Of a DNA stretch of 64,000 bases, positions 20,583 through 43,165 are shown in pieces; within the stretch, counting starts at the first letter, position 1; every line of letters begins with the position of its first letter. The DNA is from an uncultured delta proteobacterium. Its GTDB lineage: Bacteria > Desulfobacterota > Desulfuromonadia > Geobacterales > DSM-12255. The translations under genes were made by a program, and so were the position numbers. The notes under the pieces are model-generated. The model made no database searches. It worked only from the letters and a program-made list of their open reading frames with translations, and was not told where the DNA came from. The DNA is taken from the NCBI GenBank assembly GCA_963787125.1, contig CAWBBV010000001.1:384001-448000 (forward strand). Reading direction: 5' to 3'.

Positions 20583-21627
20583 ATAGGGGTCAAGTCTCCA
20601 AATATCAAATTACCAGGAAACCCTCTACTTTTTCTACCTCTCCACGCAGATGCTTATCTGTTTCCATCTTCCTCGAAAGCAGGCGACGCGCTTCTGCTAT
20701 TGCGGTTTCGCCAACACCAAACAGTTTGCCGATTTCCCGAAGTTTCTTGCCGCTGCATTTGTGGCAGAGATACATCCCTACCTGACGAGCCAGCCTTTCA
20801 TTTGTTCCAATTACTGCTGCCACTGCCTTCAATATCTCTTCAGGCTCCGGTTTTGACTTGAATTGCCGAATGCCCGGGACAGCTCTGTCTAACTCTTTCT
20901 CCGCGAGATGCGCTTTTGTCAACATCTCTACAAATTCAGTCGTGCCGAGCACCGCTCCGCCAAATGTGTTTTTGAAGGGGCTCTCATATTTTTCCCCAAG
21001 TAGGTTCTCTACAAAGGATCGATACTTCTGTTTTGCTTCAGTTGCATTACTGCTGAAATAATCTAGAACTGTTTCTACCTTCAGCCACGAGGGTGCGACG
21101 CTTTGACCGATGTAGCTGTTATAGCTTGACCAGCGGTATTCTTCCGGACGGGTAACCATTCCAGCTCTTACCGGGTTTAAATGGATATATCGAGAAAGCT
21201 CTAGCGCATATTCGCCGGCTTCAATCAGAATTGCCTTGAACCTCCCTTGAAACAGGTGTCCGGCGCGTCTCCGTTTTACGTTGAAGTATGTGGTGTAGGC
21301 TCCATTAATATGTCGCATAATCTGCGAGAGTTTCCCCTCAGGTGTTTCCAACAGCAGGTGGTAATGGTTGCTGAGAAGGCAGTAGGCATGGATTAAAGCA
21401 CCATACCGCTCGGTTGCCGATGCCAGATATTCAAGAAACTTCTCTCTGTCACGCTGACTCTTGAATACATCTTTTTGTTCATTTCCTCTCGATGTGACAT
21501 GGTAATATGCTCCCGGATAAGTTATGCGTAGCGGTCGCGCCATATAGGACTCCTTTGACTGATAAGATTCTCTTTTATCATTTCAAAGCATACCAGGTAA
21601 TTTGATATTTGGAGACTTGACCCCTAT
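20583..21627 (-). mobile_element. RAYT/Y1-transposase element bounded by perfect 32-bp inverted repeats
   Basis: ATAGGGGTCAAGTCTCCAAATATCAAATTACC (20583-20614) is the exact reverse complement of 21596-21627. Confidence 0.8.
20605..21543 (-). CDS. REP-associated tyrosine transposase-like protein (Y1 HUH) with C-terminal HTH
   Basis: MARPLR...YYHVTSRGN, HUH motif NHYHLL, GHLFQGRFK, YIHLNPVRAG, YRWSSY; C-terminal LREIGKLFG HTH. Confidence 0.92.
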   Translation of the reverse strand: MARPLRITYPGAYYHVTSRGNEQKDVFKSQRDREKFLEYLASATERYGALIHAYCLLSNHYHLLLETPEGKLSQIMRHINGAYTTYFNVKRRRAGHLFQGRFKAILIEAGEYALELSRYIHLNPVRAGMVTRPEEYRWSSYNSYIGQSVAPSWLKVETVLDYFSSNATEAKQKYRSFVENLLGEKYESPFKNTFGGAVLGTTEFVEMLTKAHLAEKELDRAVPGIRQFKSKPEPEEILKAVAAVIGTNERLARQVGMYLCHKCSGKKLREIGKLFGVGETAIAEARRLLSRKMETDKHLRGEVEKVEGFLVI

Positions 21628-26417: not shown

Positions 26418-27530
26418 TCAGGAAAACCTGATTTCAAGAAAAGTCAGGTCGTCATCCAGACGGATATCGTTTGAATACGTCAATAAAGCTTCGTGTAATG
26501 TTTTGATCTCGATGGGATTTTTTGGATACCCCTGAGATTTAAGAATGTTTATCAAGCCATCAGCTTCTAATAGTTTCCCTGCTGCATCCTGAATCTCGAT
26601 GGCACCGTCGGAGAACATCAGGAGCCGGTCTCCAGAGTCACAAATAAATTCAATCTCATCATAATCGGCATCATCAGCCACCCCGAAAGGCCACCCCGGG
26701 GCTTCGATCACTTTTGTGCATCCATTTGCCTTAAACAGGATCAGCGGCGGCCCGCCGGCAGAGGTAATCCGGACGCTTTTTTGGGAAGCATCCAGAACTC
26801 CGCAGAGCGCCGTCGCAAAAGATTCGTCCTTGACTATCTTGCAGAGTTCACGATTGAGATGCCCGGCGAATTCCGCAGGGTTGACAAGGGTCTGGCTGTA
26901 GCGATCCCAAAGTGAACTCAGATGCATGGTGTAGAGAGCTGCAGCCACTCCGTGTCCCATGACATCCGCGAGAACAAAGCCGTAGCGGTCGGCATCAAGT
27001 TGGCAAATTGCGAAATAATCTCCGCCAACCATGTCGTGTGGTAGATAAATAGTGTCAAAACCGACACGTTCATCTTTTGGCAGTTCATGATTCATGGAGA
27101 GGGTCTGAATTTTTTTCGCGCGCATCAGATTTGCGTAGGTTTCAGAAAAATCGTGAAAAGTTTCGACACCGCCAATTACCCGGCCGTCCGCATCATGCAT
27201 AGGGGCAACAGAAACAGCCATTGGCAGGCGTCCACCCGTACTGGTCAGGCCGAAAACGATGAGCGGTGCGCCACTTTTTTTATCAGTGCGCATGCTGCGA
27301 TGCAGTGGGCAGAACTCCTCACCACAGAGGCGTCTGCCATCTTTATCCACATGGACAAGAACGTTGTCAAGGCAGCGGCGCCCAACAACCTCCTGAGACT
27401 TCCAGCCGGTAATCCTTTCAGCAGCCTTGCTCCAGTAGAGAATTGTGCGGTCAGGATCACAGACATATAACCCCTCGTTCAACGAGTTGAGAATAACATC
27501 TGCATGGGCGAGATTTATTTTTGAGTACAT
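26418..27530 (-). CDS. PAS + SpoIIE/PP2C (RsbU-like) phosphatase
   Basis: PAS (WSKAAERITGW); VGGDYF, ADVMGHG, FSDG, DDLT motifs. Confidence 0.9.
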   Translation of the reverse strand: MYSKINLAHADVILNSLNEGLYVCDPDRTILYWSKAAERITGWKSQEVVGRRCLDNVLVHVDKDGRRLCGEEFCPLHRSMRTDKKSGAPLIVFGLTSTGGRLPMAVSVAPMHDADGRVIGGVETFHDFSETYANLMRAKKIQTLSMNHELPKDERVGFDTIYLPHDMVGGDYFAICQLDADRYGFVLADVMGHGVAAALYTMHLSSLWDRYSQTLVNPAEFAGHLNRELCKIVKDESFATALCGVLDASQKSVRITSAGGPPLILFKANGCTKVIEAPGWPFGVADDADYDEIEFICDSGDRLLMFSDGAIEIQDAAGKLLEADGLINILKSQGYPKNPIEIKTLHEALLTYSNDIRLDDDLTFLEIRFS

Positions 27531-27646
27531 GCTTGACCTCCTGCTATTGCTGTAAGCGTAACATTCCAATCCCCACTGTCAAACTTCTCCTGTCTCGATC
27601 TGGTCACGACGGTCCTGGCTGAACCGGCTCATTTTCTTTGACATCC

Positions 27647-27674
27647 TTGACATAATCCTTTTCCGCTATAAAAT
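27647..27674 (+). promoter_or_regulatory. Candidate sigma70 promoter
   Basis: TTGACA-N16-TAAAAT upstream of the 27833 kinase operon. Confidence 0.45.
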
Positions 27675-27832
27675 GTCTTAACGGGCTGTTTTTTAAGATT
27701 ATTTTGGACATGCTCCCAACTGTTTCCTCACCCTGATAAACAGGATAAGTGCGTTAACGAAGTTATTTTCCGCCTAAAAGCGCAGAAAATAACTCCTAAC
27801 TCACTAAAAGATGAGAAAGAGGTCCGAAAACC

Positions 27833-29785
27833 ATGGAAGAGTCCCTCCGCAAGCAGGAAAAGTTCGCTGAAAAACTGATTGAAAACTCTGCTGCCGCAAC
27901 CTTCGTTCTGGATGCGCACCATAAGGTTATCCTCTGGAACAGGGCCTGTGAAGAGCTGACCGGCATTGCCGCGGCAGCCATGATCGGCACCAGTGATCAT
28001 TGGCAGGCGTTTTATGACCATCAACGGCAGTGCCTCGCGGATGTCGTCATAGACGCGGGTTATAAAGGGCTTGAGGGCCAGTATGCCGACTACGCAAAAT
28101 CAACCCTTGTCCATGATGGTCTGCACGCTGAAGGGTGGTATCAAAATCTCAACGGCAAGGACCGTTATATCCTCTTTGATGCGGCACCCATATATGACAA
28201 CAAGGGGGATCTGCTTGCGGTCATCGAAACCATTCAGGATACAACCGCCAGCAAAAAGTTGGAAGAAACTCACCGCCTCCAAAGCGCGGCACTGCAAGCC
28301 GCCGGCAATGCAATTTTAATTACCGATAAGAACGGCACCATCGAGTGGGTTAACACGGCTTTTACTGCACTCACCGGCTATAGCCCCGAAGAGGTAATCG
28401 GCAGGAATCCAGGGCAGTTTCTCAAGTCGGGCGTCCACGGCGAAGGTTTCTATAAAAGGCTGTGGGACAACATTCTCCAGGGAGAAATCTGGTGTGGTGA
28501 AATAACCAATCGCCATAAAAACGGCGCTCTTTATCCCGAGGAGCAGACCATTACCCCGGTAAAGGATGCCCGTGGCGAGATCACTCATTTCATTGCCATC
28601 AAGCGCGATCTCAGTGAACACCGCAAGCTTGAAGCGCTGCTTAACCAATCCCAGAAAATGGAATCCATCGGTACCCTGGCTGGCGGTATTGCCCATGACT
28701 TCAACAATATTCTCGCCGCCATCATCGGCTATGGTCAATTTACTTTGATGAAAATGCCGGTGGCAGACCCCCTGCGGCACAACATTGAGAGCATGCTCGA
28801 AGCTGCGGATCGGGCAGCCCATCTCACCAAGGAGCTGCTGTTGTTTAGCAGGAAGCAGCCGATTGATAGAAAACCGCTGGACTTGAATCTGGTTGTCGCC
28901 AAGGTGGAAAACTTTCTGAAAAAAATTATCAGCGAGGATATTGCTTACCAGACCACCCTTCACGAAGCCCAACTGCCGGTTTTCGCCGATGAGTATCAGC
29001 TTGAACAGATACTGATGAATCTGGCAACCAATGCCCGTGACGCCCTGCCCCAGGGTGGATCATTTACGGTGACCACGGAAAACGTCACACTGGACAGTGA
29101 GTTCGTCACCACCCATGGCTATGGCAAATCCGGTTCTTACGCGCTGATATCAGTCACAGACACCGGCACAGGCATGGATGAGGCAACGCAGCAGCGGATC
29201 TTCGAACCGTTCTTCACAACCAAGGAGGTCGGCAAAGGCACCGGTCTGGGCCTGGCGGTAACCTACGGCATCATCAAACAGCATGATGGCTACATTACCG
29301 TGCAGAGCCAACCGGGCAGCGGCACTACTTTCAGAATATACCTGCCGATCATTGACGCAAAAACCGAGGAAGAAAGCCTGATAGAGCCGAAAATGTCAGT
29401 GGTTGGCGGTGCGGAGACCATACTTCTCGCCGAGGATGATGAAACCGTAAGGGTGATGACGAAAAAACTGCTGACGGATTTCGGTTATACGGTTATTGCT
29501 GCGGTGAACGGCATGGACGCAGTCAGCAAATTCAGGGAGAACAGCCAGAGCATAGATATGTTGATGTTCGATCTCATCATGCCGCAGATGAACGGTAAAG
29601 AAGCGTTTGATGAAATCCGGCGGGTCAGCCCCGGTATCAAAGCCCTGTTTTACAGTGGCTATGCTCCGGAAGTAATCCGGCAGAAAGTAACCCTGGCTGC
29701 AGGTACCGATCTGATGGCCAAACCTGCTTCTCCGGTTGAGGTTCTGCGAAAAGTGCGCAGTGTGCTGGATGGCGAACGCCATTAA
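27833..29785 (+). CDS. PAS-PAS hybrid histidine kinase (HisKA-HATPase-REC)
   Basis: [38 protein letters not shown]. Confidence 0.95.
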
Positions 29786-29799
29786 GTTATGGGGGTGGT

Positions 29800-30864
29800 A
29801 TGGAAAAGAAACAAGCAGAGCCGCAGGCAACAGTTCTGGTCGTCGATGACGATTTCCAGGTTCTCGAATCGATCCTGCTTGTGCTCGGTGCCCACGGCTA
29901 CCCGGTGGTTACGGCTGGCAGTGCCGCCGAAGCATTGGAGCGGCTGGATGACCGGGAGGTACAGATCGTGCTCACCGACATCAGAATGCCGGGCATGAGC
30001 GGCATCGAACTGGCCGGTAAAATTCACCAACATGATCCGGATTTGCCGGTGCTTATCATGACCGCCTACGCCGAAACCGATGTTGCAGTCAGCGCCCTGA
30101 AAAGCGGTGCTTTCGATTTCATTTACAAGCCGTTCAATCCGGGCCTGCTGCTGCATGCAATCGGTAAAGCGGCAGCATTCAGCCGGATGAAGAATAACGA
30201 AAAAAACTATCGACTGGACCTTGAAGCTGCAGTGAAAAAAAAGACGGAGGAGCTTTGGGATCTGAACAGAGAGGTCATCCGCCGCCTGACCGTGGTCGCC
30301 GAATACCGTGACACGGATACCGGCTGGCACAACTGGCGGATCGGCCGGTTTTCCGGCATTATTGCCGAAGCACTTGGCCTGTCGACCGCTTTTACAGCGA
30401 CTATTCTGCTTGCCAGCACTCTCCATGATATCGGCAAGGTCGCGGTACCTGACAGTATCCTTTTGAAGCCGGGAGCACTGACTACAGATGAGTTTGCAGT
30501 TATCAAGACTCATTCGGCGCTCGGGGCGAAGATGCTGGAAGGCTCTGCTCACGCCGTCATCCAGATGGCCGAAACGATTGCCTTGAACCATCATGAGCGC
30601 TGGGATGGCAGCGGTTACCCCAACGGTCTGCGGGGAGAAGAGACTCCGATAGAGGGGCGGATAGTCATGCTGGCCGATCAATATGACGCCCTGCGGGCAC
30701 GCCGTCCCTACAAGGAGCCTTTCAGTCACGCGGAAGTCTGCCGGATTATTCTTCATGGGGATGGCAGAACGATGCCGGCCCATTTCGATCCGCAGATCCT
30801 TGATATTTTCAGACAGATGGAGGTTGAATTCGCCATTGCTTTTGAATCGCTGCTGGATCACTAG
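29800..30864 (+). CDS. REC + HD-GYP cyclic-dinucleotide phosphodiesterase
   Basis: REC (VVDDD, DIRMP); LHDIGK, HHERWDGSGYP. Confidence 0.95.
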   Translation: MEKKQAEPQATVLVVDDDFQVLESILLVLGAHGYPVVTAGSAAEALERLDDREVQIVLTDIRMPGMSGIELAGKIHQHDPDLPVLIMTAYAETDVAVSALKSGAFDFIYKPFNPGLLLHAIGKAAAFSRMKNNEKNYRLDLEAAVKKKTEELWDLNREVIRRLTVVAEYRDTDTGWHNWRIGRFSGIIAEALGLSTAFTATILLASTLHDIGKVAVPDSILLKPGALTTDEFAVIKTHSALGAKMLEGSAHAVIQMAETIALNHHERWDGSGYPNGLRGEETPIEGRIVMLADQYDALRARRPYKEPFSHAEVCRIILHGDGRTMPAHFDPQILDIFRQMEVEFAIAFESLLDH

Positions 30865-30888
30865 GAATTAAGTTTGGCAGGAGCTGCT

Positions 30889-31257
30889 ATGAAAAAGGTA
30901 CTAGTTATTGATGATGATATTCAGTTCAATAAAATGGTCTGCATGATTCTTGAGGACAGCGGTTATGCAGTCAGGTCGGCCCATGATGGCGTTGCAGGGC
31001 TGAAGATGTTTATGCAGGAGCGCCCTGACCTGGTGATAACGGATCTCTACATGCCTGAAAAAGAGGGGCTGGAGACGATCATGGAGCTGCGTCAGGAAGA
31101 CAGTAAGATTAAAATTCTGGTGATGTCAGGAGGCTCGCCGCACATGAACATGGCGGAAATGTTCAATATGGCCGGGCTGTTCGGTGCTGATGCTGCCCTG
31201 CCCAAACCGTTCTCCATGGGAACGTTCCTTGAGAAAGTTAGTGAGCTGATGGGTTAA
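30889..31257 (+). CDS. Single-domain response regulator
   Basis: VIDDD, DLYMP, SGG, KPF. Confidence 0.92.
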   Translation: MKKVLVIDDDIQFNKMVCMILEDSGYAVRSAHDGVAGLKMFMQERPDLVITDLYMPEKEGLETIMELRQEDSKIKILVMSGGSPHMNMAEMFNMAGLFGADAALPKPFSMGTFLEKVSELMG

Positions 31258-31299
31258 CCGTAGCAGTCCATTCACGGTGAAATTGTTCCGAGGTCATCA

Positions 31300-32832
31300 A
31301 TGAAATCCACGCTCAAAGAACAGCTAAATTCAGGTAGTTCTGAAAACAGTGACGACAAGACAGTGCTCGTTGCGCCGCTCCGTCCGCTCTATCAACTGAT
31401 CCTCCTCTGGACTCTGTTGATAATCGGTTTTGCAGCCTGGAGCAGTTATGATTCTTATCACTCCGAGCTTCAGATTGCCACAGCCGTTGCCCGCTACAAT
31501 TTCAACAAAGATGAGGTTTATCGCAGCTGGGCAACCATGCATGGCGGCGTCTATGTGCCAATAACGGCACGGACTGTCCCAAACCCGTATCTTTCTCACC
31601 TTCCGGAGCGGGACATAACAACCCCTTCAGGCAAGCGGCTTACCCTGATGAACCCGGCGTATATGACCCGCCAAGCGCATGAATTAGGCCTGGAACTGTA
31701 TGGGTTGCATGGCCATATAACCAGCCTCAAGCCAATCCGGCCGGAAAACGCCGCTGACGCCTGGGAGGTTAAAGCGCTTAAAAAATTTGAAAAAGGTGCC
31801 AGCGAGGTCACATCCAAGGAGCTGATTGACGGCAAACCTTATATCCGCTTTATGAAAGCTTTGCTGGTGGAAGAAGGGTGTCTGAAATGTCATGCGACTC
31901 AAGGGTACAAAATAGGCGAGGTTCGCGGTGGCATCAGCGTTTCTGTGCCGTGGGAGCCTTATCAGAAGCAGTTTGTCAGTGCAATGAGCATCGAGTTGGT
32001 AACACACAGCGTTGTCTGGATCATCGGAGTTGGCGGCATCGTCACCGGCCGGCGCAGACTGCTGAGCTATTTCAGTGAGCGAAACAGGGCTGAAAAAGAG
32101 AAGCTGGCGCTGGAGTTGCGTCTACAGCAGGGGCAGAAACTGGAAAGCCTGGGTGTATTGGCCGGCGGGATCGCCCATGATTTTAACAACATCCTGGCAA
32201 CGATCATCGGCCACTGCGGTATTTTGCAGCTCAGGCCGGAAAAGGTTGCGAAATGTGTCCCGGAGATCGAGAGCGCTGCCGAGCGTGCCGCGGCACTCTG
32301 CCGTCAGATGCTGGCCTATGCCGGCAAGAGCCAAACTGTTATGTCCCGGTTCGATATGACAATTCTGGTGGCTGAGATGGTTGCAATGCTGAAAGCGACC
32401 ACCCCGCAGAATGTGGTCATTAACACAAATCTTGCGACTGATGTTTTGCTGGTTAAAGGCGATAGTGAACAGTTCAGGCAGATTATCATCAATCTGCTCA
32501 CGAATGCTGCCGAGGCGATCGGTGCAGCAGAGGGAGAGATACGGGTATCACTGACAAAAACAGAAATAATGGCAGGAGATTTGGTTAAGGATCATCTTGG
32601 CAGGATCATTCCGGCGGGTAGCTATGCCTGTCTTGAGGTAACTGACACCGGCTGCGGCATGGATGCTGAAACCAGCAGCAGGATTTTCGAACCATTTTAC
32701 ACCACCAGGTTTTTTGGCCGCGGCCTGGGGTTGCCCGCGACTCTCGGCATCATTACCGCCCATAAGGGGGCGGTGCAGCTACACAGTCAGCCGGGACAGG
32801 GAACGACGGTCAAGGTCTTTCTGCCCGTATAG
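31300..32832 (+). CDS. Membrane histidine kinase with periplasmic c-type heme sensor (DUF3365-like)
   Basis: Two TMs flanking NPAYMTRQ...SLKPIRPEN...CLKCH...GGISV; HDFNN HisKA and HATPase. Confidence 0.88.
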   Translation: MKSTLKEQLNSGSSENSDDKTVLVAPLRPLYQLILLWTLLIIGFAAWSSYDSYHSELQIATAVARYNFNKDEVYRSWATMHGGVYVPITARTVPNPYLSHLPERDITTPSGKRLTLMNPAYMTRQAHELGLELYGLHGHITSLKPIRPENAADAWEVKALKKFEKGASEVTSKELIDGKPYIRFMKALLVEEGCLKCHATQGYKIGEVRGGISVSVPWEPYQKQFVSAMSIELVTHSVVWIIGVGGIVTGRRRLLSYFSERNRAEKEKLALELRLQQGQKLESLGVLAGGIAHDFNNILATIIGHCGILQLRPEKVAKCVPEIESAAERAAALCRQMLAYAGKSQTVMSRFDMTILVAEMVAMLKATTPQNVVINTNLATDVLLVKGDSEQFRQIIINLLTNAAEAIGAAEGEIRVSLTKTEIMAGDLVKDHLGRIIPAGSYACLEVTDTGCGMDAETSSRIFEPFYTTRFFGRGLGLPATLGIITAHKGAVQLHSQPGQGTTVKVFLPV

Positions 32833-32854
32833 ACCAGTAAACGCCCGCCGTGAT

Positions 32855-34438
32855 TCAGCCTGCCAATACCGCTCTGATTTTTATCGCCAGATCGCTGATG
32901 GAGCACGGTTTCTGGATAAATTGCACCCCTTCTTCCAGCACCCCATGATGGGCGATGACGTCGGCTGTATAGCCTGAGGTGAAAAGGCACTTCATCGCCG
33001 CTCTGGTTGGTCTCAGCTTCTCAGCCAGCGTTCTGCCGTTCATCCCCGGCATCACCACATCAGTTATCAGCAGGTGTATCTCGCCGGGGTGCTCAGCGCA
33101 AAGGTGGATCGCTTTGTCCGGGGAGTCGGCTGCCAGCACCTGATACTCGAGCATTTCCAGAATCTCACAGGTCATCTGTAACAGCGACGGTTCGTCCTCC
33201 ACCAGTAGAACTGTCTCACCACAGCTTTTTGGGACCGCTCTTGAAGCTGTTTCCTCTGCGGCGGGAACCTGCCCCGGATGCCGCGGCAGGTAAATTCTGA
33301 AGGTTGTCCCCTGTCCCGGCTCGCTGTAGACATTGATGAAGCCGTTGTTCTGCTTGACGATGCCGTACACCGTGGCAAGTCCGAGGCCAGTACCTTGTCC
33401 AACCTCTTTAGTGGTAAAGAACGGTTCAAAAATCTTTTCCTGTGTCTCCTTGTCCATGCCACAGCCGGAATCGCTTATGGCAAGCATTACATACTCTCCC
33501 GGAACAAGTTCAGCATGCTTTGCGCAGTCAGCCTCGTTAAAAACAGTATTACCTGTCTCGATAATGAGTTTGCCGACATCAGGAATGGCATCGCGGGCGT
33601 TGACACAGAGATTGGCAAGGATCTGATCTTCCTGGGAAGGATCCAGCTTGACCGGCCAGAGGCCCGCTCCGGGCAGCCAGGTGAGCTCGATGTTTTCACC
33701 GATCAGACGCCGGAGGATTTTCAGCATCGCTTCCACGGTCTCGTTCAGATCAAGTACCTTGGGGACAACTGTCTGTTTTCTGGCAAAAGCCAGCAACTGT
33801 CTGGTGATGCCGGCTGCCCGTTCGGCAGCGTTACTTATGCCGCGCAGCTCTTTTTGCAGCGGGTGATCCGGCGCAATTTTCCGCGTGGCCAGATCGACAT
33901 TCCCCAGAATCACTCCAAGCATATTATTGAAGTCGTGGGCCACACCACCGGCAAGCCGGCCGATTGATTCCATCTTTTGCGCCTGAATAAGCTTGGCTTC
34001 GAGCAAGGCCTTCTCTTCCTCTGCCAACCGGTGTGCAGTCCGCTCCTTGACTTCACTGAGCGCCCGCTCAATCACCATCGAAAGCTTGTCGAGCCGCTCC
34101 TTGGGGAGGTAGTCAGTCGCCCCCTCTTTCAGGAGCTGCACCGCTTTTTCTTCACCAATAGCGCCGGAAACACAGATGAACGGTACTCCGGGGCAGAGCG
34201 ACTTCGTCAGCCGCAGCGCCTCCGTACCCTCGATACCGGGAAGGTGGAAGTCGGCAAGAACCAGGTCGTAGCCGCCGCTATGCAAAAATGCGGTAAACTG
34301 CTGCTCGTTGGCAGCCCAGTCAAGCTGGCAAGAAAAGCCGGCGTCGGTCAGCCGCTCCCTGATAATTTCCGCGTCAAGCGGTGAATCTTCAAGATGCAGA
34401 ATCTTCAGCGAGTTGAGGGCGTCAGTTTCAGCGATCAT
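32855..34438 (-). CDS. REC-HisKA-HATPase-REC hybrid kinase
   Basis: [20 protein letters not shown]-terminal REC DVVMP. Confidence 0.93.
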
Positions 34439-34886
34439 GCGTTGAACCCCCTTGTGGCGGCAGTTCATTCAGCACGGCCCAGAAAACGCCGACATGCCTC
34501 ACCGCCTCGACAAATTCCGAGAATTTGACCGGTTTGACCACATAGGCATTGACCCCCAGATCGTAACTGCGGATCAGATCATGCTCTTCCCGTGAAGAAG
34601 TCAGCATCACCACCGGGATCATTTTCAGCGTTTCATCAGTACGAATTGCCCGCAGAACATCGATGCCGTCCATGCGCGGCATTTTGATGTCCAGAATCAC
34701 CACTGCCGGGTTGCCGGGCTTGCGTCCGCTGTATTTCCCTTCGCAGCGCAGATACTCCATCGCCTCCACGCCGTCCTTGACGTGGGTGACCAGATTGGCC
34801 AGGTTGTTATCGGCCAGGGCCTCCAGAGTCAGTTCGACATCACTGGGGTTGTCTTCTGCAAACAGAATCGGTTTCAGTTCAGTCAT
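34428..34886 (-). CDS. Single-domain response regulator (Rcp1/CphA-partner type)
   Basis: [23 protein letters not shown]...[14 protein letters not shown]. Confidence 0.92.
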
Positions 34887-37800
34887 GGTTTTCTCCTTGT
34901 ATTTTAGGCAATGTGAAGTAAAAACTGGCCCCGCGGTTCAGTTCGGCCTCAGCCCAGATCCGGCCACCATGACGGGCAACGATCCGCTGGACGGTGGCCA
35001 GACCGATACCGGTCCCCTCAAATTCTTCCAGTGTGTGCAGCCGCTGAAAGACGCCAAAGAGTTTGTCGACGTACTTCATATCAAAGCCGACGCCGTTATC
35101 GGCAACGGTGAAGACAATTTCACCGTTCTCCTCGCGGGCGCTGACCTCAATGCGGGCAGACTCTTTTGTCCGGGTATATTTAACCGCATTATCCAGAAGG
35201 TTGACCCAGACCTGGCGAAGCAGGGCGTAATCGCCCCGGACAGACGGCAACTCCCCGATGACCCATTCGATGGCGCGATCTGAATGACTCGCTTTTAGCG
35301 GCGTCAGCACTTCCTGCAGTGACTGGTTCATGTCCAGAGCTTGCCGCCGCATTTCCGCCCGTCCGGTGCGGGAAAACTGCAGCAGGTCGTCAATCAGCAC
35401 CCCCATCTGGCGAGCGGCAGAAGCAATGGTGTCCAGATAGTGCAGCCCTTTATCGCTGAGACCGGCGCGGCAGCGGGAAATCAGCAGCTCCACATAACCG
35501 TCAATATGCCGCAAGGGGGCGCGCAGATCGTGGGAGACGGAGTAGCAAAACGCTTCCAGCTCCTTGTTGGCAGTTTCCAGCTGACCTGTTCGCTCGATAA
35601 CCCGTTTTTCCAGTTCGGCGTTCAAACGGTGGATTTCTGTCTCGGCTTTTTTCCGTTCGCTAATTTCTGCCTTGAGTGATTCGTTGGCAACTTCCAGCTC
35701 TTCCGTTCGCTCTTTTACCCGATGCTCCACCTCGTCATAGGCTTTTTGCAATTCTCCCTGGGTGCGCTCCAGCTTCTCCTTCTCCCGTTGCAGTTCAGTG
35801 TTGACCAGTTGCAGCTGCTGAGGACTGGGGATAGAGAGGAGCCTGGGGAGTACGGGCCAGACAACGATTGCTGTTGCCAGTGAAACCAGGGCAGTGAGAG
35901 TGTCTACGGCTGCCTGCCACCAGTCAACCGGCCACCAGAGACCGACCACATGGACAAGATGGGTCGTACCGCAGGCAAGAATGAAAAGTCCGAAGAGGAC
36001 AATAATCCAGGAAAACGGCAGGTCTTTCCGTTTTCTGACAAACACCACCAGGAAAAAGGGGATGGTCGCGTAGGAGACGGCGATCAAAGCATTGGCAATG
36101 GCCATGGTCATCATCAGAAGCGGGGGCATGGTACCGGCCTTTGCTCCCTGGATTTCCATGGTGCCCGGCATGAAGACCATCGGCGCTATAATGAGAATAG
36201 CCAGAGCGGCTGCCGGGGCGATGACTCTCGGCACAAGTTCCAGCGTTTGCCTTAAAAGAGATTTGGGCGGGGCAAAGGTCTGCACTTTGTAAGCCCGTAA
36301 GCGGAGGCTGTTGGTCACCACGAAAATCGAGCTGAACGCCATGGCTCCGGCAGCGAACATCGGGATGAGCAGGCCATAGGCAGCAACCGGGATGAGGGCA
36401 ATGTTGTAGAACAGGGCCCAGATCAGATTCTGGACAATGGTCTGGGATGTTGCCCGGGAGAGTGAAATAGCCCGGCCGACGCCGGCGAGATCACCGCTGA
36501 TAAGGGTGATGCCGGCAGCGGCCATGGCTATGTCGGTACCGGTGCCGATGGCAATGCCGACATCAGCCTGAGCCAGTGCCGGAGCATCATTGATGCCGTC
36601 ACCGACCATCGCCACGGTAGGCCGGGCAAAATTGCCAAGGCTGCTCACAGCCTGTAACTGTTTTATCGCTTCGGCTTTTTCGCCGGGCAATACTTCGGCC
36701 ACGACCCGGGTTATCCCGACCTGAGCGGCGATCGCGTCAGCAGTGCTCTGGTTGTCACCGGTCAGCATGACAATGTCGAGACCAAGTTGGCGTAGATCGG
36801 CAATTGCTTCCCTGGCGCCCGGTTTCACCGTGTCTGCAACTGCGATCAACCCTATCGGCCTGGCAGGTTCATTGCCCTCCACCCGGCTGACGGCGACGAT
36901 CATGGCGGTCTTGCCTTCGGCTTGCAGTCTCATGATGTCAGTCTGCAGCTTATCTACAGCGATCCCTTCATTTTGCATCATCCGCGGATTGCCGATGATC
37001 ACGGCTGTATCCGCCACTATCGCCCTGATGCCAAAACCGCCGAAAGCACGGAACTGTTCCGGAGAGCCAAGCGCCAAACCCTTATCCTGTCCGGCCTTGA
37101 CGATGCAGCGCCCTAATGGATGTTCCGAGCCAAGTTCAGCGCTGGCCGCCAGGCGGAGAACTTCGTCGGCAGGCAGATCATGGGTAGGGATAATATCGGT
37201 AAGAGCCGGTTCTCCCCGGGTGATGGTGCCGGTTTTATCAAATACAACGATATTGACGCGGCCGGCCCGTTCGAGGATTTCGCTGCTTTTGAAGAGAATC
37301 CCGCTTTGAGCCCCTCTGGAGGTGCCGACCATGATGGCAGTCGGTGTTGCCAGGCCGATGGCGCAGGGGCAGGCGATAACGAGAACCGCAATGGCATTTA
37401 TCATCGCACCGGTCCAGGGGATATGGACGACATAAAGCCAGCCGAAGAAGGTAGCCAGGGCAATAGCGATGATGATCGGCACGAAATATTTGCCGATTTC
37501 GTCGGTCAGCTTCTGGATAGGTGCTTTGCTCCCCTGGGCTTCCTGCACCAGTTTTGCTATCTGTGCCAGGGTACTGTTCTTGCCGACCTTGGTGGCTTCG
37601 AATCTGATCAAGCCTTCGCGGTTGATCGTAGCGCCGATGACTTCATCGCCGGGACCTTTGCTGACAGGCATCGACTCACCGGTGATCATTGCTTCATCAA
37701 AGGCCGAGCGGCCTTCACTGATGATGCCGTCAACAGGGACTTTTTCGCCGGGGCGGACGACCACGCTATCGCCGACCAGAACCTGTTCAACGCTGATCAC

Positions 37801-38715
37801 AGTTTCAACGCCGTTCCGCACTACGCAGGCTGTCTTGGCGCGCAGTCCCATCAACGCCTTCAAGGCCGCCGATGTTTTACCTTTAGCGCGGGTTTCCAGG
37901 TATTTGCCGAGCTTGATGAGAGTGATGATGGCCGCGCCGGTTTCGTAATAAACATTGGGACTGCTGATGATGCCGATGGTAACGAGCAGGCTGGAAAAAT
38001 AGGCGGCCGAAGAGCCCATGGCGATGAGCACATCCATGTTGGCACTACCGAAACGGAGGCTCTTCCAGGCGCCGACGTAAAATTGCCAGCCGACGATAAA
38101 TTGGACGACAGTCGCCGCCAGGAGCATGATAACTTGATCGTATTTAAAAGCGACGCTGATAAAGTCCCGCGCCATGCTGAAGATGATGAGCGGTATCGTA
38201 AAAATGAGCCCGATTATCAGTAAACGCCCCTGTTTTTCCAGTTCGGCGGCGCGCAGTTGAGCTTCTACGTCTTCTACCTCTTCGGATTCACCCGCCTGGA
38301 CAAGATCAAAGCCGGCGCTGCGGATGATTGCGGCCAGTTCGGCAACCGAGGTCACGCCGGGGATATACTCAAGCGCTGCCCGCTCGACACCGTAGCTGAC
38401 AGTGGCGACAAGGACTCCGTTTTGCTTGGCCAGGAGTTTTTCCAGCGTCAAGGCATCGGTATGATCCTGTAACCCGGTAATCGGCAGAGTTATCTTGCCG
38501 GTGGCAACGGCATAGCCGATCTTTTTGACATGGGCAATGATATCGGTTTCGCTCAGCTGGAGCGGGTCAAAACTGATATTCAGTTTTTCACTGGCAAAAT
38601 CGACACTCGCGTCGCTAATACCCGGCAATTTACGCAGATTAGACTCGATTCTCAGGGCGCAGTTGGCACAGGTCATGCCGGTAACAGGCATGGTGGTGCT
38701 CTCGGAAGGGGTCAT
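34879..38715 (-). CDS. Fusion protein: Cu(I) P1B-type ATPase + ETR1-like ethylene-binding TM domain + histidine kinase
   Basis: GMTCANC, TGES, CPC (449-451), DKTGT (D493), [19 protein letters not shown]; then [14 protein letters not shown]...FILACGTTH...[10 protein letters not shown]; then SVSHDLRAP (H1062), NAVKY, DNGVG, GTGIGL. Confidence 0.9.
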
Positions 38716-38752
38716 TCTTACCTCTTGAAATTTCTATGGTGCAGCAAATTAT

Positions 38753-40864
38753 TTAAGCCGTCAGGTGAACTGCGTCACTCCCCAGCAACTCATGCACCTT
38801 GGTCGCCAGAGCCTGTAACGTGTAAGGTTTCTGAATGAAATGCACCCCTGTATCCAGCACGCCATTGTGGGCGATTATGTCGGCCGTATATCCCGACATG
38901 AACAGACATTTCATTTCAGGCCTGAGCGGGCGGATTTTTTCGGCCAGATCCCGACCGTTCATGCCCGGCATCACCACGTCGGTCATCAGCAGGTGAATCA
39001 CCCCCGGATGTTCTGTTGCAATCCGGAGTGCCTCGAACGGGCTGTTTGCGGGTAGTACTACATAGTTATTAAATTCCAGAATCTCCCTGGTCATTTCCAG
39101 GAGTGTCGGCTCATCCTCAACTAAAAGCACAATCTCGCCGTGTCCCATGGCGGCTTCTGCTGCAGCCGGTTCCAAGAGCGTTGCGCCATGGACAGTATGC
39201 CTGGGCAGATAGATGTTGAACGTCGTTCCCTGTCCCGGCTCGCTATAGACATTTATAAAGCCTTTGTTCTGCTTGACGGCGCCATAAACCGTGGCGAGTC
39301 CCAGGCCGGTTCCCTTGCCGGTCTCCTTGGTAGTAAAAAATGGTTCGAAGATATGGGCCAGTGTTTCCCTGTCCATACCGTAGCCGTTGTCGCCGACAGT
39401 CAGCCGCACATACTCTCCGGGGACAAAGTCCGGGTCCTGGGGGGTGTAAAACTGGTCGAAGCTGCTGTTGCCGGTTTCAATGATAATCTTGCCGACGCCG
39501 GAGATCGCATCCCTGGCATTAACACAGAGATTGGCAAGGATCTGATCGATCTGGGACGGATCTGCCATCACCGGCCAGAGCTTTGCGGCCGGCTGCCAAC
39601 TGAGTTGAATGTCTTCGCCGATAAGTCGCTGCAGCATTTTGAGTGTGCTTGCTACCGCGTCATTCAGATCGAGATTTTTCGGGACAATGGTTTGTTTGCG
39701 GGCAAAGGCCAGCAGTTGCCGGGTGAGGTCGGCGGAGTGTCTGGCGGCGGTGCGGATTTCTTCCAGGTCAGCACGCAGAGGCTGGGACGGCTCCAGCTTC
39801 ATTAGCGCCAGATCAGCACGGCCTATAATGACAGTCAGCATGTTGTTGAAGTCATGGGCAACTCCGCCTGCCAATCGACCCACTGATTCCATTTTCTGCG
39901 CCTGCAGCAGCTGGGATTCGAGTTTAGTCCTCTCCTCCTCGGCACGTTTGCGTGCGGTGATATCCTGGATGAAAGCCACTATCTGTCCGTTTTCATCTGA
40001 GCGGTACTGGGCGCTGACTTCGACGTCAAAAACGGTGCCATCCTTGCGGCGCTGCCGCGATTCAAAGCGATCCGCTCCCCGTTCCCTGACTAAGCGGATG
40101 TGAGCAGCTGTTCCTTCGGGCGACTCTTCAATTTCGATATCACTGATACTCATGGACAACAGCTCTGCCATGCTGTAGCCGCTCATCCGGCAATAGGTCA
40201 TATTGACCTCGATAAAGTGCCCCTGGGTGTCTACCAGCCAGATTCCATCCATGGCTGTCTGCAGGATAGTCCGGTGGTGTTCTTCGCTCTTGCGAAGTTC
40301 AGCGGTACGCTCCTCCACCCGCTGCTCCAGTTTCTGCGACTGTTGCTCAATCTGCCGAAAGGCGAGCGAGTTTTTGAGCGCCAGGGTGATCGGCGGGGCA
40401 AGCAGAGTGATGATCCGGTCTGTTTCGCCAATCCGCTCCAATTCCGGCAGATCGAAGAGTAGCAGCATGCCGACCAGTTCACCACCCACCCGCAACGGAT
40501 AGCGTGCCATTGACTTGATGCCGGCCCGCAACAGCTGGCTACGCAAAGGATGATTCAGAGTCAGCTCTTCCGGATAAAACGGTAGCGCTTCGGGACTTGT
40601 TTCAGGACAAAACGTATTCAGTTCAAGTGGGGAAAAGAGCGTGGCTCGCCTTGCCGGGCTGACATTCAACAGTTCGTCTGTTTCAGTTTCTGCGTGGTGG
40701 GCAATAACCATAACTGTTCTGGCTCCGGTCAGTTCGCGCAGATGTTCTGTCAACGCCACGCCCAGTTCATACGGTGAGGTGGAAACCAGCAGTTGCGAGA
40801 TCACCTCGATGGCCATCAACTGGGCAGCAGGTGAGAACTTCTGTTCGTTTTCAAATGCTTTCAT
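38753..40864 (-). CDS. GAF-like/PAS hybrid histidine kinase with REC
   Basis: N-terminal GAF-like segment ([13 protein letters not shown]), PAS, VAHDFNN, REC. Confidence 0.9.
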
Positions 40865-41469
40865 GGCGTCTCCCCGGCAACCCTGCAAAATTTTGCCTCG
40901 GCTCGGGCTGCCAGCAGTGCTGTCAGCATACTGTCCAGTGTTACCGTTTCAACCCGCCAGGGGAGCCCGCTGTAGGTCGAAAATTCTGTCAGCTGCAGTT
41001 CAGGAACCGGCAGCAGGCCGGTATCAAGATATACCAGCACCCTCCGGTTTTCTCCCATGAGCCCCTGCGCAACCTCTTTGTTCAGCCCCAGTTCGCTCTT
41101 CATGATATATTCCCAGCGCCGGGCCCATTCCGGCAGAACCAGAAAGGCCTCTTCACGCATCAGTTGGCGATAGCGATCCCGTCCCAGCAGCAGCTGCGCA
41201 CAGTTGATAACATTGACCCGACCCACCTGAAAACGGCGCACCAGGTCGAGCATCCGGGCGGTGCAATCGCCATAGACGAGCACCAGGCAGCCGGTCTCGT
41301 CAGTTCTCTCAGTAAGCGCTGTGTGCAGCTTCGCTTCGAGTTTCGGGGGGTCCATATGCAGCATAGAGTCGAGAAAAAGCAGTTTGCCGCCGATAAGCCG
41401 GCGGCGGTGCAGCTCCTCCATCTCTGCCCGTACTACGCCGCAACTGAGCCAGACAGTACGCTCCGTCAC
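40861..41469 (-). CDS. DUF1638-like protein
   Basis: SCGVVRAE, LDSMLHMDP..L, VYGDC, NCAQLLLG, YLDTG; GTGA overlap with upstream stop. Confidence 0.75.
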   Translation of the reverse strand: MTERTVWLSCGVVRAEMEELHRRRLIGGKLLFLDSMLHMDPPKLEAKLHTALTERTDETGCLVLVYGDCTARMLDLVRRFQVGRVNVINCAQLLLGRDRYRQLMREEAFLVLPEWARRWEYIMKSELGLNKEVAQGLMGENRRVLVYLDTGLLPVPELQLTEFSTYSGLPWRVETVTLDSMLTALLAARAEAKFCRVAGETP

Positions 41470-42500
41470 TTCCCGCACCCCATCTCCCCGGAATAGTCGG
41501 CAGCGGCAGCCTGCATGGCGCGCAGATTTCCGGGTGGCGTTGCCTGTGGCATATCGGCGCCTGCATTGGCCAGAATGTAGTGCCCGGAAGGCGCAGCCGT
41601 CCGCAGGCATGCCATGCTCAGCGCATACACCTGTTCGGGAGTGGCCGTCGGCATGGTCAGATTGTCCAGGTTGCCGATAATGGTCAGGTCAGGCCCAAGT
41701 AACTGTCTGGCTTCGGCCAGATCATCCTTTGAACCGGCAATAATCCCGACCAGGCCGTCTGTTCCGGGGAGCAGGTCAAGGACGTGATTCATGCGGCCGC
41801 CGGTGCTGCTGATGACTTTGGGGCCATTTATCCGGGTAAAAACAGCCTGGAGGTGCGGCAGGAACTGATCGACAAAGATGCTGCGCGGGGCTACTGCCGA
41901 CGTTGCCATCCCTTCGGTAATGACCAGGCAGTCGGCGCCCGCGTCAAGCAGGGCATTAGCCCAGGCGATTAAAAATGGCGACGTATACTCCAGCAGGCTC
42001 TGAGCCAGCTCTTTATCAAAGAGGACCGCTTCCATCCACTGTTCAATGCCGACAAGCAGAGACGGGAGAATGCCGGGTCCGGGAAGAACGCTGATGATCG
42101 GCGCTTGCCCCTTGTACAGCTCCGCCAGCTGCCGGTTTGTCTCAAGTATCATGGGCAGACGACCGGTGCATAGGATATCCGGAAGCGGTAATGAAAGGGC
42201 GTCAACAGCCTTTCTCGCTGCCGGTCGTTTCATGTTGGGAACCTGATCAGCAGACCAGGCCACCTCGCCCCCAAACGCTTCCGCAATGGCGCTGTAGTCA
42301 AAAGCAGTCATCACCAGATCAAAGCCGAACTCCTTTTGGAGCGCTTTTTGACCGGCCACGTAGGCGGTTGCATCGCTGTACAGAGTCCGCAAATCGGTGT
42401 TTGTCAGCTTGCCACCGTAAGCGCCGAGAACGGCAAAGACCGGCAACCTGTCAACCGGTTGCCCGGAAAGAGTATTCATGACCCGTTGATATGAATTCAT
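41466..42500 (-). CDS. MtaA/CmuA / URO-D family methyltransferase-like protein (Zn ligands absent)
   Basis: G.PVDRLPV, AEAFGG, GRLP.ILE, GNLD, GHYILA. Confidence 0.85.
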   Translation of the reverse strand: MNSYQRVMNTLSGQPVDRLPVFAVLGAYGGKLTNTDLRTLYSDATAYVAGQKALQKEFGFDLVMTAFDYSAIAEAFGGEVAWSADQVPNMKRPAARKAVDALSLPLPDILCTGRLPMILETNRQLAELYKGQAPIISVLPGPGILPSLLVGIEQWMEAVLFDKELAQSLLEYTSPFLIAWANALLDAGADCLVITEGMATSAVAPRSIFVDQFLPHLQAVFTRINGPKVISSTGGRMNHVLDLLPGTDGLVGIIAGSKDDLAEARQLLGPDLTIIGNLDNLTMPTATPEQVYALSMACLRTAAPSGHYILANAGADMPQATPPGNLRAMQAAAADYSGEMGCGK

Positions 42501-43165
42501 GATAGCACCTCTTGCCGGGCTTCACGCTGTAGCCGCATGAAAAGTTCATCGGCGGCAACGGCATTATGGGCGCTGCCATCACCACCTACTTCCGCCACCA
42601 GCTCCGGACGCCAGTTGAAGACTGCACCGCCGACCGCCAATTTAATCCGGCCACTTAATCCTCTGGCGTTGATCAGTTCACGCAGTTTGCAGATGTTCAG
42701 GGCAGTGGTCTGCATCATGGCAGAAGCGCCGATCACACAGGCATTGACCTCAAGCGCCTTTTCCAGAAACTGCTCGGCCGGCACGTCATTGCCCAGGTCG
42801 TAAACATCCCAGCCTGCTGCAGCCAGAAAGAGACCCACGGTTTTGCGGCCAAGACTGTGAAAATCATCCTCGATGTTGCCGATCACAACTGCGCCTTTGC
42901 TGTGACGGTCAGAACTATTATCCGGGACACAGCGAAGCAGAGTGTCTTCCGCAATTTTTGAGGCAACAAAGTTCTGCGCTAACGACATGGTCTCTTCTTC
43001 CCACATCTTGCCGAGTTCGATGATAGCCGGGTCGAGGATACTTTCAATGACCTGCACGGAATCAAGCCCTGTGGCAAGCGCGTTTTCAATAATCCCTTTA
43101 GCACCGGCGCGATCAGCATTTATCATGGCGGTAAGCAACTGTTCACTGAAATCGGCAGGCTTCAT
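42497..43165 (-). CDS. Corrinoid (B12-binding) protein, MtaC/MtbC-like
   Basis: Cap domain then DxHxxG (DFHSLG), DLGNDVP, GASAMM, VGGA. Confidence 0.9.
   Translation of the reverse strand: MKPADFSEQLLTAMINADRAGAKGIIENALATGLDSVQVIESILDPAIIELGKMWEEETMSLAQNFVASKIAEDTLLRCVPDNSSDRHSKGAVVIGNIEDDFHSLGRKTVGLFLAAAGWDVYDLGNDVPAEQFLEKALEVNACVIGASAMMQTTALNICKLRELINARGLSGRIKLAVGGAVFNWRPELVAEVGGDGSAHNAVAADELFMRLQREARQEVLS

Follow-up and report, generated by a model that had tools for sequence, protein, structure and literature searches.

Can a copper pump be built into the same polypeptide as a copper-dependent sensor that it might supply, and what would such a protein report to the cell? This question is raised by a gene located at positions 34879..38715, on the minus strand, of a 64,000-nucleotide stretch of DNA from an uncultured delta proteobacterium of the Geobacterales lineage (GenBank assembly GCA_963787125.1, contig CAWBBV010000001.1, positions 384,001 to 448,000), the whole of which is hereafter referred to as the window. 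The gene encodes a protein of 1278 amino acids (aa) in which a copper pump, an adaptor helix, an ETR1-type sensor and a histidine kinase follow one another, an architecture that an initial annotation of the sequence had described as RAN1 plus ETR1 in one chain and that is borne out by the domain and motif evidence given below. What is established here comprises the domains with their invariant residues, the repeated occurrence of the fusion and its gene cassette, and the covariation between sensor helices 1 and 3. The protein is probably a self-metallating, copper-dependent small-molecule (gas) sensor kinase that would signal to a co-transcribed receiver, and self-metallation is the best-supported reading of its mechanism.

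Domain composition and recurrence of the fused protein

It was verified that the open reading frame (ORF), previously reported as uninterrupted, contains no internal stop. Its product begins with an HMA metal-binding domain (aa 9-68, 38512..38691, on the minus strand like all parts of the gene; Pfam PF00403, 68.3 bits) with a CxxC motif formed by C16 and C19, and continues into a pump core (aa 150-812, 36280..38268) of eight transmembrane helices and the A, P and N domains, recognised by Pfam, NCBIfam and motifs. Within this core, Pfam places E1-E2_ATPase at aa 291-470 and Hydrolase (HAD-type) at aa 488-718, and the first 810 residues score as a copper-translocating P-type ATPase in NCBIfam (TIGR01511, 565.9 bits against a cutoff of 397), with TIGR01525 also above its cutoff (622.2 against 346.25 bits). 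The pump motifs are all in place, namely CxxC at 16-19, TGES at 345, CPC at 449-451, DKTGT at 493 (D493), HP at 532, GDGINDAP at 705, Y770-N771 and MAFSS at 792 (M792, S795 and S796). A transmembrane Cu(I) site composed of CPC, YN and MxxSS defines subgroup 1B-1 of the P-type ATPases. By profile and motifs, the pump part is a complete P1B-1 Cu(I) ATPase, as had been held for the first ~810 residues, and is predicted to transport Cu(I); the single residues listed in the initial annotation, among them CPC, D493, C915, H919 and H1062, were each found where it had placed them. A second HMA-like segment, lacking CxxC, lies at 38296-38493 (aa ~75-140) and, judged by eye, is conserved in the family consensus, although Pfam gives only one HMA stretch in the protein.

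The sensor (aa 867-962, 35830..36117) is a three-helix Cu(I)/ethylene-binding-type domain of the ETR1 kind, identified by the ETR1_N profile PF25487, which it matches over positions 2-97 of 97 with 108.9 bits (gathering score 27; E 1.6e-31), and by alignment with the bacterial receptor AzoEtr1, in agreement with the earlier assignment of residues ~870-965; in the genome-wide profile search, its ETR1_N score was 115.5 bits. Its three helices are seen as hydropathy peaks and, with low predicted local distance difference test (pLDDT) values, at aa 865-895, 902-925 and 932-960 of an AlphaFold2 model, their orientation being a proposed one. This model covers residues 150-1010, was built from an alignment of 39 sequences and reached a mean pLDDT of 72.4 and a predicted template modelling score (pTM) of 0.60, with the pump moderately well modelled; its helix boundaries were used and its packing was not. 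A coiled-coil linker (aa 963-1054, 35554..35829), recognised from heptad-like sequence and from a helix at model residues 816-860 (protein 965-1009, pLDDT 71-85), leads to the kinase core (34903..35553), which comprises HisKA (aa 1055-1116, with H1062; PF00512, 45.2 bits) and HATPase_c (aa 1161-1271; PF02518, 90.7 bits). Both the coiled coil and the complete HisKA/HATPase module formerly proposed to follow the sensor are accordingly present. The N, G1 and G2 boxes of the kinase (N1172/N1176, D1206/G1208/G1210 and G1234/G1236/G1238) are invariant across the family, and, unlike plant ETR1, the window's protein has no GAF or receiver domain.

The same arrangement recurs among relatives. When protein clusters were searched with residues 780-1278 and the 120 best clusters were taken, all 120 carried ETR1_N and 111 also an E1-E2 ATPase domain, in proteins of 1207-2185 aa, and many had one to five PAS or GAF domains inserted between sensor and kinase. 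Both DKTGT and CPC occur in 112 of the 121 aligned sequences (the best clusters plus the window protein), and the other nine comprise seven truncated gene calls that start inside the pump and two pump-less proteins, P0086 (1551 aa) and P0115 (1388 aa, on a 318-kb contig), which start at the adaptor helix or at the Met-rich loop described below. These two keep the Met loop and the Asn/Asp sensor, and P0086 keeps the adaptor helix as well.

A genome scan, with one genome per species, returned 44 loci, of which 30 constitute the fused clade (L012-L041, 61-86% identical). All of these come from metagenome-assembled genome (MAG) or metagenome-assembly records, whose MAG labels cover at least six phyla (Bacteroidota, Ignavibacteriota/Chlorobiota, Thermodesulfobacteriota, Acidobacteriota, Verrucomicrobiota and Sumerlaeota), with Geobacter/Desulfuromonadales/Syntrophobacter, Verrucomicrobiae and one Clostridiaceae as narrower labels. 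Intact ORFs of 1207-1900 aa with CxxC, CPC, DKTGT and GDGxND are present in 24 of the 30 loci and five loci end at a contig edge; every locus in which the 5' side is available carries the fusion (25 of 25, 24 intact and one frameshifted). Orthologues of the architecture, for which the initial annotation had proposed a search, were thus found both among clusters and among genomes. In the exceptional locus, from an Ignavibacteriales MAG (L031:7485-11356), the pump lies in an overlapping upstream frame, indicating a frameshift, which falls inside the pump P domain; the contig name suggests a long-read assembly, and the split reflects a pseudogene or else an error of sequencing.

An artefact of assembly or annotation, in which two genes were wrongly joined, was also considered and rejected as having a negligible probability. 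The window ORF has no stop, the junction region is itself conserved, and the same uninterrupted join is found in 24 independent assemblies and in 111 of 120 clusters; therefore, misassembly is excluded as far as such a comparison allows. Public sequencing runs were searched with this sequence, the best word share being 0.13, with none reaching half and no RNA run listed. Reads and contigs from four runs were mostly CopA sequences of other organisms, less than 90% alike, together with a few near-identical pieces of 151 nt, and no read piece spanning the junction stretch was found among the four runs examined.

Conservation extends to all modules. Where the position is covered, no substitution was observed at C449, P450 and C451 (112 of 112 sequences), D493 (114 of 114), Y770 (119 of 119) or M792, S795 and S796 (119 of 119), C16 and C19 are kept in all 109 sequences that reach them, and C915, H919 and H1062 in all 121; TGES, HP, GDGINDAP and YN are likewise free of substitution, the pump motifs being covered by 112 to 119 sequences. 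This pattern indicates that pump, sensor and kinase are all under purifying selection and that all parts look functional. By its recurrence among clusters and loci, together with the tree of pump cores given below, the fusion is selected rather than accidental.

The fused form is nevertheless rare within its family. A HMMER search with residues 816-970 against 1.84 billion representatives gave 4209 proteins at E <= 1e-10 and 35 at E <= 1e-30. Among the 150 matches listed, 25 start at query residue 20 or before and thus include the adaptor helix, while from about rank 36 down nearly all listed matches start at query 47-59 and cover hit residues ~10-130, which corresponds to an ordinary N-terminal domain. 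As judged from these matches, the family is large and the fused form makes up one compact branch of it with few members. Its distribution is also patchy, since, among the genomes sampled, ETR1_N was over cutoff in only four of 401 from the window's phylum, in none of eight from its order and in none of five from its class, and the window gene nests among Bacteroidota copies and shares 86-87% identity with a copy from a Geobacter MAG; horizontal spread of the fused gene is likely. A rapid maximum-likelihood analysis of 25 fused pump cores and the hosts' own stand-alone CopAs placed 22 of the 25 in one clade (Shimodaira-Hasegawa-like approximate likelihood ratio test, SH-aLRT, 93) and none grouped with the CopA of its own host; when the three longest branches were left out, all 25 fused cores stood on one side of a branch (SH-aLRT 92.7). 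This topology is consistent with a single origin of the fused pumps, without strongly proving it.

Junction, sensor residues and the proposed copper route

Pump and sensor are connected by an adaptor transmembrane helix (aa ~826-850, 36166..36240), recognised from a hydropathy peak (aa 831-849, score 2.54), from a helix in the AlphaFold2 model (model residues 671-699, protein 820-848) and from conservation, with L827, P829, P834, L838, L841, I842 and P845 at least 90% conserved. The C-terminal end of the pump is cytoplasmic and the sensor has to begin on the outer side if the kinase is to lie inside, which requires an odd number of extra helices. The adaptor would therefore return the chain to the periplasmic face, allowing the sensor to keep its N-out, C-in topology, and the basic residues read from the sequence in both cytoplasmic loops support this arrangement.

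The adaptor is followed by a Met-rich periplasmic loop which, with the start of helix 1, spans aa 846-872 (36100..36180) and contains M846, M849, M853, M863, M868, M869 and M871. Of these, M863, M868 and M869 are present in all 121 sequences, and M849 and M871 in 120. The 32 residues before N875 hold five to seven Met in the fused loci (28 of 28) against none to two in the unfused ones (12 of 12). At the place of the junction, the unfused receptors carry instead an N-terminal PHGxCYxW motif (12 of 12 loci), usually with a His at position -4 from the Asp, whereas in the fused clade this motif is gone and Met occupies position -4 (28 of 28 loci). Unfused loci with PHGxCYxW are L002:2429-2560, L003:3923-4060, L004:2947-3060 and L042-L053, and with this His/Cys set these receptors could capture copper for themselves. 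On the oxidising side of a membrane, Cu(I) is usually bound by Met motifs, and the loop of the fused proteins is a candidate Cu(I) relay. When the complex between residues 150-812 (the pump core) and residues 822-966 (adaptor and sensor) was predicted, without controls, the interaction prediction scores from aligned errors (ipSAE) were 0.00 and 0.00, which speaks neither for nor against a contact. The adaptor helix and the Met loop, like the sole-copper-pump status considered below, were missing from the initial account of the architecture, which itself stood.

The sensor residues were read against the experimentally validated receptor AzoEtr1 of Azospirillum brasilense Sp7 plasmid p1, a 525-aa ORF (L002:2429-4006) located by tblastn with the sensor segment. 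Tyr32, Ile35, Pro36 and Ile62 of ETR1 are reportedly, from work by Wang et al. in 2006, among the residues needed for ethylene binding, and the corresponding Y882, I885, P886 and I912 are identical to those of AzoEtr1 in the alignment. The identity of the reference ORF is given by its start, which matches the cloning primer in PMC11819568, and by D35, C75, H79 and K98, which occur as printed there and are described in that paper as the equivalents of ETR1 D25, C65, H69 and K91. C75 and H79 of AzoEtr1 are matched by C915 and H919, so that the earlier claim that the Cu ligands Cys65/His69 are conserved held in all 121 sequences. The position 40 residues before C915, which had been taken as that of Asp25, was also correctly located, but the residue there is Asn (N875, aligned with D35), and D938 aligns with K98, so that the Lys91 equivalent is an Asp. 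Hence the proposed equivalence with ethylene receptors stands for the Cu ligands and fails as a full equivalence, as Asp25 is replaced by Asn and Lys91 by Asp throughout the 121 sequences. N875, Y882, I885, P886, I912, C915, H919 and D938 are each invariant in the family, Asn also occupies the Asp25 position in all 28 fused loci examined, and the receptors of Novosphingobium and Acaryochloris have Asp at the first position and Lys and Gln, respectively, at the second.

The consequences of such replacements have been described for ETR1. According to PMC10266040, Asp25 is required for high-affinity ethylene binding, Lys91 is its polar partner and a signal relay, and about 1% of binding remains in K91M and K91A after loss of the basic residue; D25N is functional but has an at least 100-fold lower ethylene affinity and weakens copper complexation (PMC11971883 and PMC10266040). 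In the present data, the two positions could be read together in 104 of the 150 listed representatives (P0122-P0269), which are ranked by likeness to the query and do not represent population frequencies. The helix-1/helix-3 pairs found were D+K in 73, N+D in 27 and N+K, N+V, N+N and E+K in one each, with D+D in none, and N+D occurs beyond the fusion, in several ordinary N-terminal receptors in which PHGxC is still present. This covariation agrees with the Asp25-Lys91 coupling drawn from 1,221 sequences (PMC10266040) and suggests that N+D is a second, "swapped" state of the Asp25-Lys91 contact, which looks like a relocated acid group rather than a simple loss. The affinity, the kinetics or even the ligand of the Asn/Asp sensor may differ from those of ethylene receptors.

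The following account of the membrane topology, of how and along which path copper is handed on, of the ligand and of the sense in which the kinase is controlled is inferred from these observations. The chain would cross the membrane about 12 times, through eight pump helices, the adaptor and three sensor helices, before entering the cytoplasm as coiled coil and HisKA kinase. Cytoplasmic Cu(I) would enter via the CxxC domain and the CPC/YN/MxxSS site and be released at the periplasmic face, where the tethered Met loop (MxxM...MMxM) would catch one Cu(I) and hand it down helix 1 to Cys915/His919, yielding the holo-sensor. A small pi-ligand would then bind at the Cu(I) site. Ethylene is the most likely one and is taken as the default because six of seven reportedly essential residues are invariant; its kinetics would be altered, probably faster and of lower affinity, because Asp25 is Asn. 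The change would be relayed through the N875-D938 contact between helices 1 and 3 to the coiled coil, altering autophosphorylation of H1062, and the phosphoryl group would pass to the co-transcribed single-domain receiver and on to a hybrid-kinase relay.

Self-metallation by the pump is argued from the invariance of pump and Cu ligands and from the fusion-specific Met motif on the copper-release side. It is further argued from what is known of the plant proteins: each monomer of the ETR1 membrane domain takes up one Cu(I), with a dissociation constant (KD) of about 1e-15 M (PMC6586836), and RAN1 is required for ETR1 function and is bound directly by the ETR1 transmembrane domain with a KD of 33 nM (PMC6656775). 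An affinity in this femtomolar range is more in keeping with copper as a fixed cofactor than with copper as a reversible signal.

Gene neighbourhood and host genomes

The fused gene is followed by a gene for a single-domain response-regulator receiver of 152 aa (34428..34886, minus strand; PF00072, 72.2 bits), the first 8 nt of which overlap the end of the fused gene, and by this overlap the receiver is the likely phosphoryl acceptor. It overlaps in turn a hybrid kinase of 537 aa with the Pfam order REC-HisKA-HATPase_c-REC (32855..34468, minus strand). Among 28 related loci compared, the gene immediately after the fused one encodes a single receiver in ten, and a hybrid kinase of the type REC-(PAS)-kinase(-REC) is the next gene in six and the first in one. 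By this recurrence, fused gene, receiver and hybrid kinase are a conserved cassette, with the REC-HisKA-HATPase_c-REC kinase as its predicted third member. One related locus continues into a REC-PAS-GAF-GGDEF-EAL protein. On the upstream side, 38 nt from the fused gene, Pfam recognises another hybrid kinase, GAF-PAS-HisKA-HATPase_c-REC, of 711 aa (38753..40888, minus strand), which is not conserved across related loci. The two-component cluster of the window as a whole (26418-40888) comprises a PAS-SpoIIE phosphatase, PAS-kinase-REC, REC-HD (HD_5), a Tll0287-type kinase, REC-kinase-REC, REC and GAF-PAS-kinase-REC. No copper-resistance gene (efflux, oxidase or chaperone) was found in this cluster around the fused gene. 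The presence of signalling neighbours rather than copper resistance appears to speak for the sensor reading, as do the PAS/GAF insertions of relatives, which resemble those of multi-input sensors.

A copper or thiol-redox gene lies just upstream in five of the 28 loci, encoding DsbD_2+HMA in one, DsbD_2+cupredoxin in two and a thioredoxin-like DUF255 protein in two (L014:6323-7363, L024:6028-7248, L039:6306-7307, L027:6638-7360 and L038:6635-7357); the remaining loci have other genes there, or none by the rule applied. These DsbD_2 and thioredoxin-like genes may provide periplasmic copper or thiol-redox support for the sensor. Further from the fused gene, DUF1638, URO-D-family and B12-binding corrinoid proteins are encoded in a row at 40861-43165 of the window, on the minus strand, and look like a corrinoid methyltransferase set. 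An ORF for an IS200-like Y1 transposase with a DnaA-type helix-turn-helix tail (20605-21543) is situated about 13 kb from the fused gene, within the stretch of lowest GC content in the window (0.415 at 20-22 kb).

Of the ORFs in the window's genome (4.2 Mb, 99.96% complete), none but the fused one exceeds the Cu-ATPase cutoff, has an HMA domain or encodes a heavy-metal pump; the other P-type ATPases there are KdpB and two P2-type pumps. Five other host genomes were compared, four of which have at least one stand-alone Cu-ATPase of ~750 aa, which makes the fused pump there an extra, dedicated copy; the fifth, G405, has the fused copy only.

Competing readings and comparison with known systems

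The initial annotation had offered two ideas, a pump that loads copper onto its own sensor, which is plausible, and a sensor that reports copper flux through the pump, which the status of the fused protein as sole copper pump keeps in play. The second of these is the main rival, and it holds that copper is the signal rather than the cofactor. The ETR1-type domain would bind passing Cu(I), and the kinase would report export or periplasmic Cu(I) and tune copper or envelope homeostasis. The Met-rich loop of the fused proteins is similar to loops of known periplasmic Cu(I) binders. Such a role would also suit a protein that is the only heavy-metal pump and HMA protein of the window's genome and the only Cu-ATPase of G405, as well as the DsbD_2+HMA, DsbD_2+cupredoxin or thioredoxin-like genes upstream in five of 28 loci, and the weaker copper complexation that Asn at position 25 brings to ETR1 (PMC11971883) would favour reversible binding. 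However, efflux, oxidase or chaperone genes are lacking from the window cluster and from most related loci, and the partner receiver has no DNA-binding domain and feeds hybrid kinases, instead of being an OmpR-type regulator beside resistance genes. Separate CopAs are kept in four of the five other hosts, and the six other residues reported for ethylene binding are invariant although copper alone would not need them. Binding of Cu(I) at ~1e-15 M (PMC6586836) would be too tight for this role unless N875 and D938 change it greatly. On balance, copper-flux sensing is considered improbable, at somewhat better than one chance in five.

The fusion might otherwise tether an ordinary CopA to an ordinary sensor that work independently, serving only co-expression, co-localisation or joint transfer. 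The apparent horizontal mobility of the fused genes, read from the scarcity of ETR1_N in the surrounding phylum, order and class, fits this idea, and so do the rare pump-less relatives P0086 and P0115, but the junction does not behave as a passive tether. The adaptor helix and loop are conserved far beyond what tethering needs, and every fused member has lost the His/Cys motif and acquired adaptor and Met loop in its place, which points to a changed, not an unchanged, route of copper acquisition. Independent modules are consequently regarded as less probable still than copper-flux sensing.

Several observations also weigh against the self-metallating sensor kinase. Being the sole Cu-ATPase in the window's genome and in G405, the protein may also, or mainly, be a housekeeping exporter. 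Copper or thiol-redox genes lie upstream in five loci. The replacement of Asp25 by Asn and of Lys91 by Asp in every family member means, given the binding losses of D25N and K91M/K91A in ETR1 (PMC10266040 and PMC11971883), that ethylene binding by the fused sensor cannot be assumed. Fusion is not generally needed for metallation, as thousands of unfused receptors obtain their copper with no pump attached; nearly all listed members of the 4209 representative clusters at E <= 1e-10 are unfused and N-terminal. The adaptor helix and sensor have pLDDT values of 44-63 in the AlphaFold2 model, which is silent on their packing. Moreover, mapping in plants has put the contact of RAN1 with ETR1 chiefly in the cytosolic N-terminal domain of the pump and not at its lumenal exit (PMC6656775), so that the hand-off could be cytoplasmic and the Met loop could serve otherwise.

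Should the self-metallating sensor kinase be correct, it would bear on ethylene-receptor and copper-trafficking research, where it is still argued whether plant ethylene receptors obtain copper from the RAN1 exit, from the RAN1 N-terminal domain or from soluble chaperones. A natural single-chain pump-receptor is a Rosetta-stone argument that both proteins work as a unit and, if the reading holds, would be independent genetic proof of a direct, ancient pump-to-receptor copper hand-off; it also offers a stable, stoichiometric complex for cryo-EM and copper-transfer assays. The natural variants, with a Met relay for His/Cys and Asn/Asp for Asp/Lys, point to residues of copper entry and of the signal path, and the Asn/Asp class might serve for rapid sensing of ethylene at low affinity, or for some other small ligand. 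ETR1-type sensing is extended by these genes to Bacteroidota, Ignavibacteriota, Acidobacteriota, Verrucomicrobiota and relatives of Geobacter, in which ethylene perception was not considered. It is suggested tentatively, at slightly less than an even chance, that this is the first natural P-type pump joined covalently to its client metalloprotein, an in-cis metallochaperone that would feed Cu(I) via a Met relay into the sensor, the whole forming a portable, self-sufficient gas sensor spread across at least six phyla, so far seen in MAGs alone.

The initial annotation knew of no earlier description of the architecture, and no description of an ethylene-binding domain fused to a P-type ATPase, or of a fusion between a primary pump and a histidine kinase, was found in the full-text literature searched, although supplements might mention one. 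The word "ATPase" does not occur in PMC11819568 or in PMC10266040, a survey of 1,221 ethylene-binding domains; databases name the fused proteins only "heavy metal translocating P-type ATPase" or "Cu+-exporting ATPase"; and a PDB sequence search with the sensor segment gave no match at E <= 1, and thus no experimental structure of an ethylene-binding domain. The components and their partnership are textbook knowledge, while their single-chain union, the adaptor, the putative Met relay and the pump-kinase link are undescribed in the literature searched.

Among known systems, the CopA-type P1B-1 exporters of E. coli, Legionella and Archaeoglobus share with the fused protein all signature motifs and a TIGR01511 score over cutoff, and differ from it in lacking the 470-residue C-terminal extension with sensor and kinase; for the E. 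coli-type CopA equivalog NF007952, the fused protein scores 553.7 bits, below the cutoff of 1316. In CusS/CopS and in transporter-coupled kinases such as BceAB-BceS, a histidine kinase responds to metal or transport status, as it might in the fused protein, and sensing is through a periplasmic domain or a separate transporter protein; we know of none that has a membrane domain of the ETR1 type or carries a pump within its own chain. Closer on the sensor side are SynEtr1 of Synechocystis and AzoEtr1, in which ETR1_N likewise precedes a kinase and a receiver gene is adjacent. AzoEtr1 binds labelled ethylene (PMC11819568) and, in the segment that aligns, shares 39% identity with the window's domain, including Y, I, P, I, C and H, but in these two receptors the domain is N-terminal, with PHGxC..W, Asp25 and Lys91, and there is no pump. 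The fullest likeness is to the Arabidopsis pair, in which RAN1 (HMA7) is a CopA/ATP7-type pump with HMA and ETR1 combines a three-helix Cys/His Cu(I) domain with a histidine-kinase module. Whereas the plant partners are two proteins, with Asp25/Lys91 in the receptor and output through CTR1/EIN2, here they are one polypeptide, joined through an extra transmembrane helix and a Met-rich loop, with Asn/Asp in the sensor and a bacterial phosphorelay as the predicted output.

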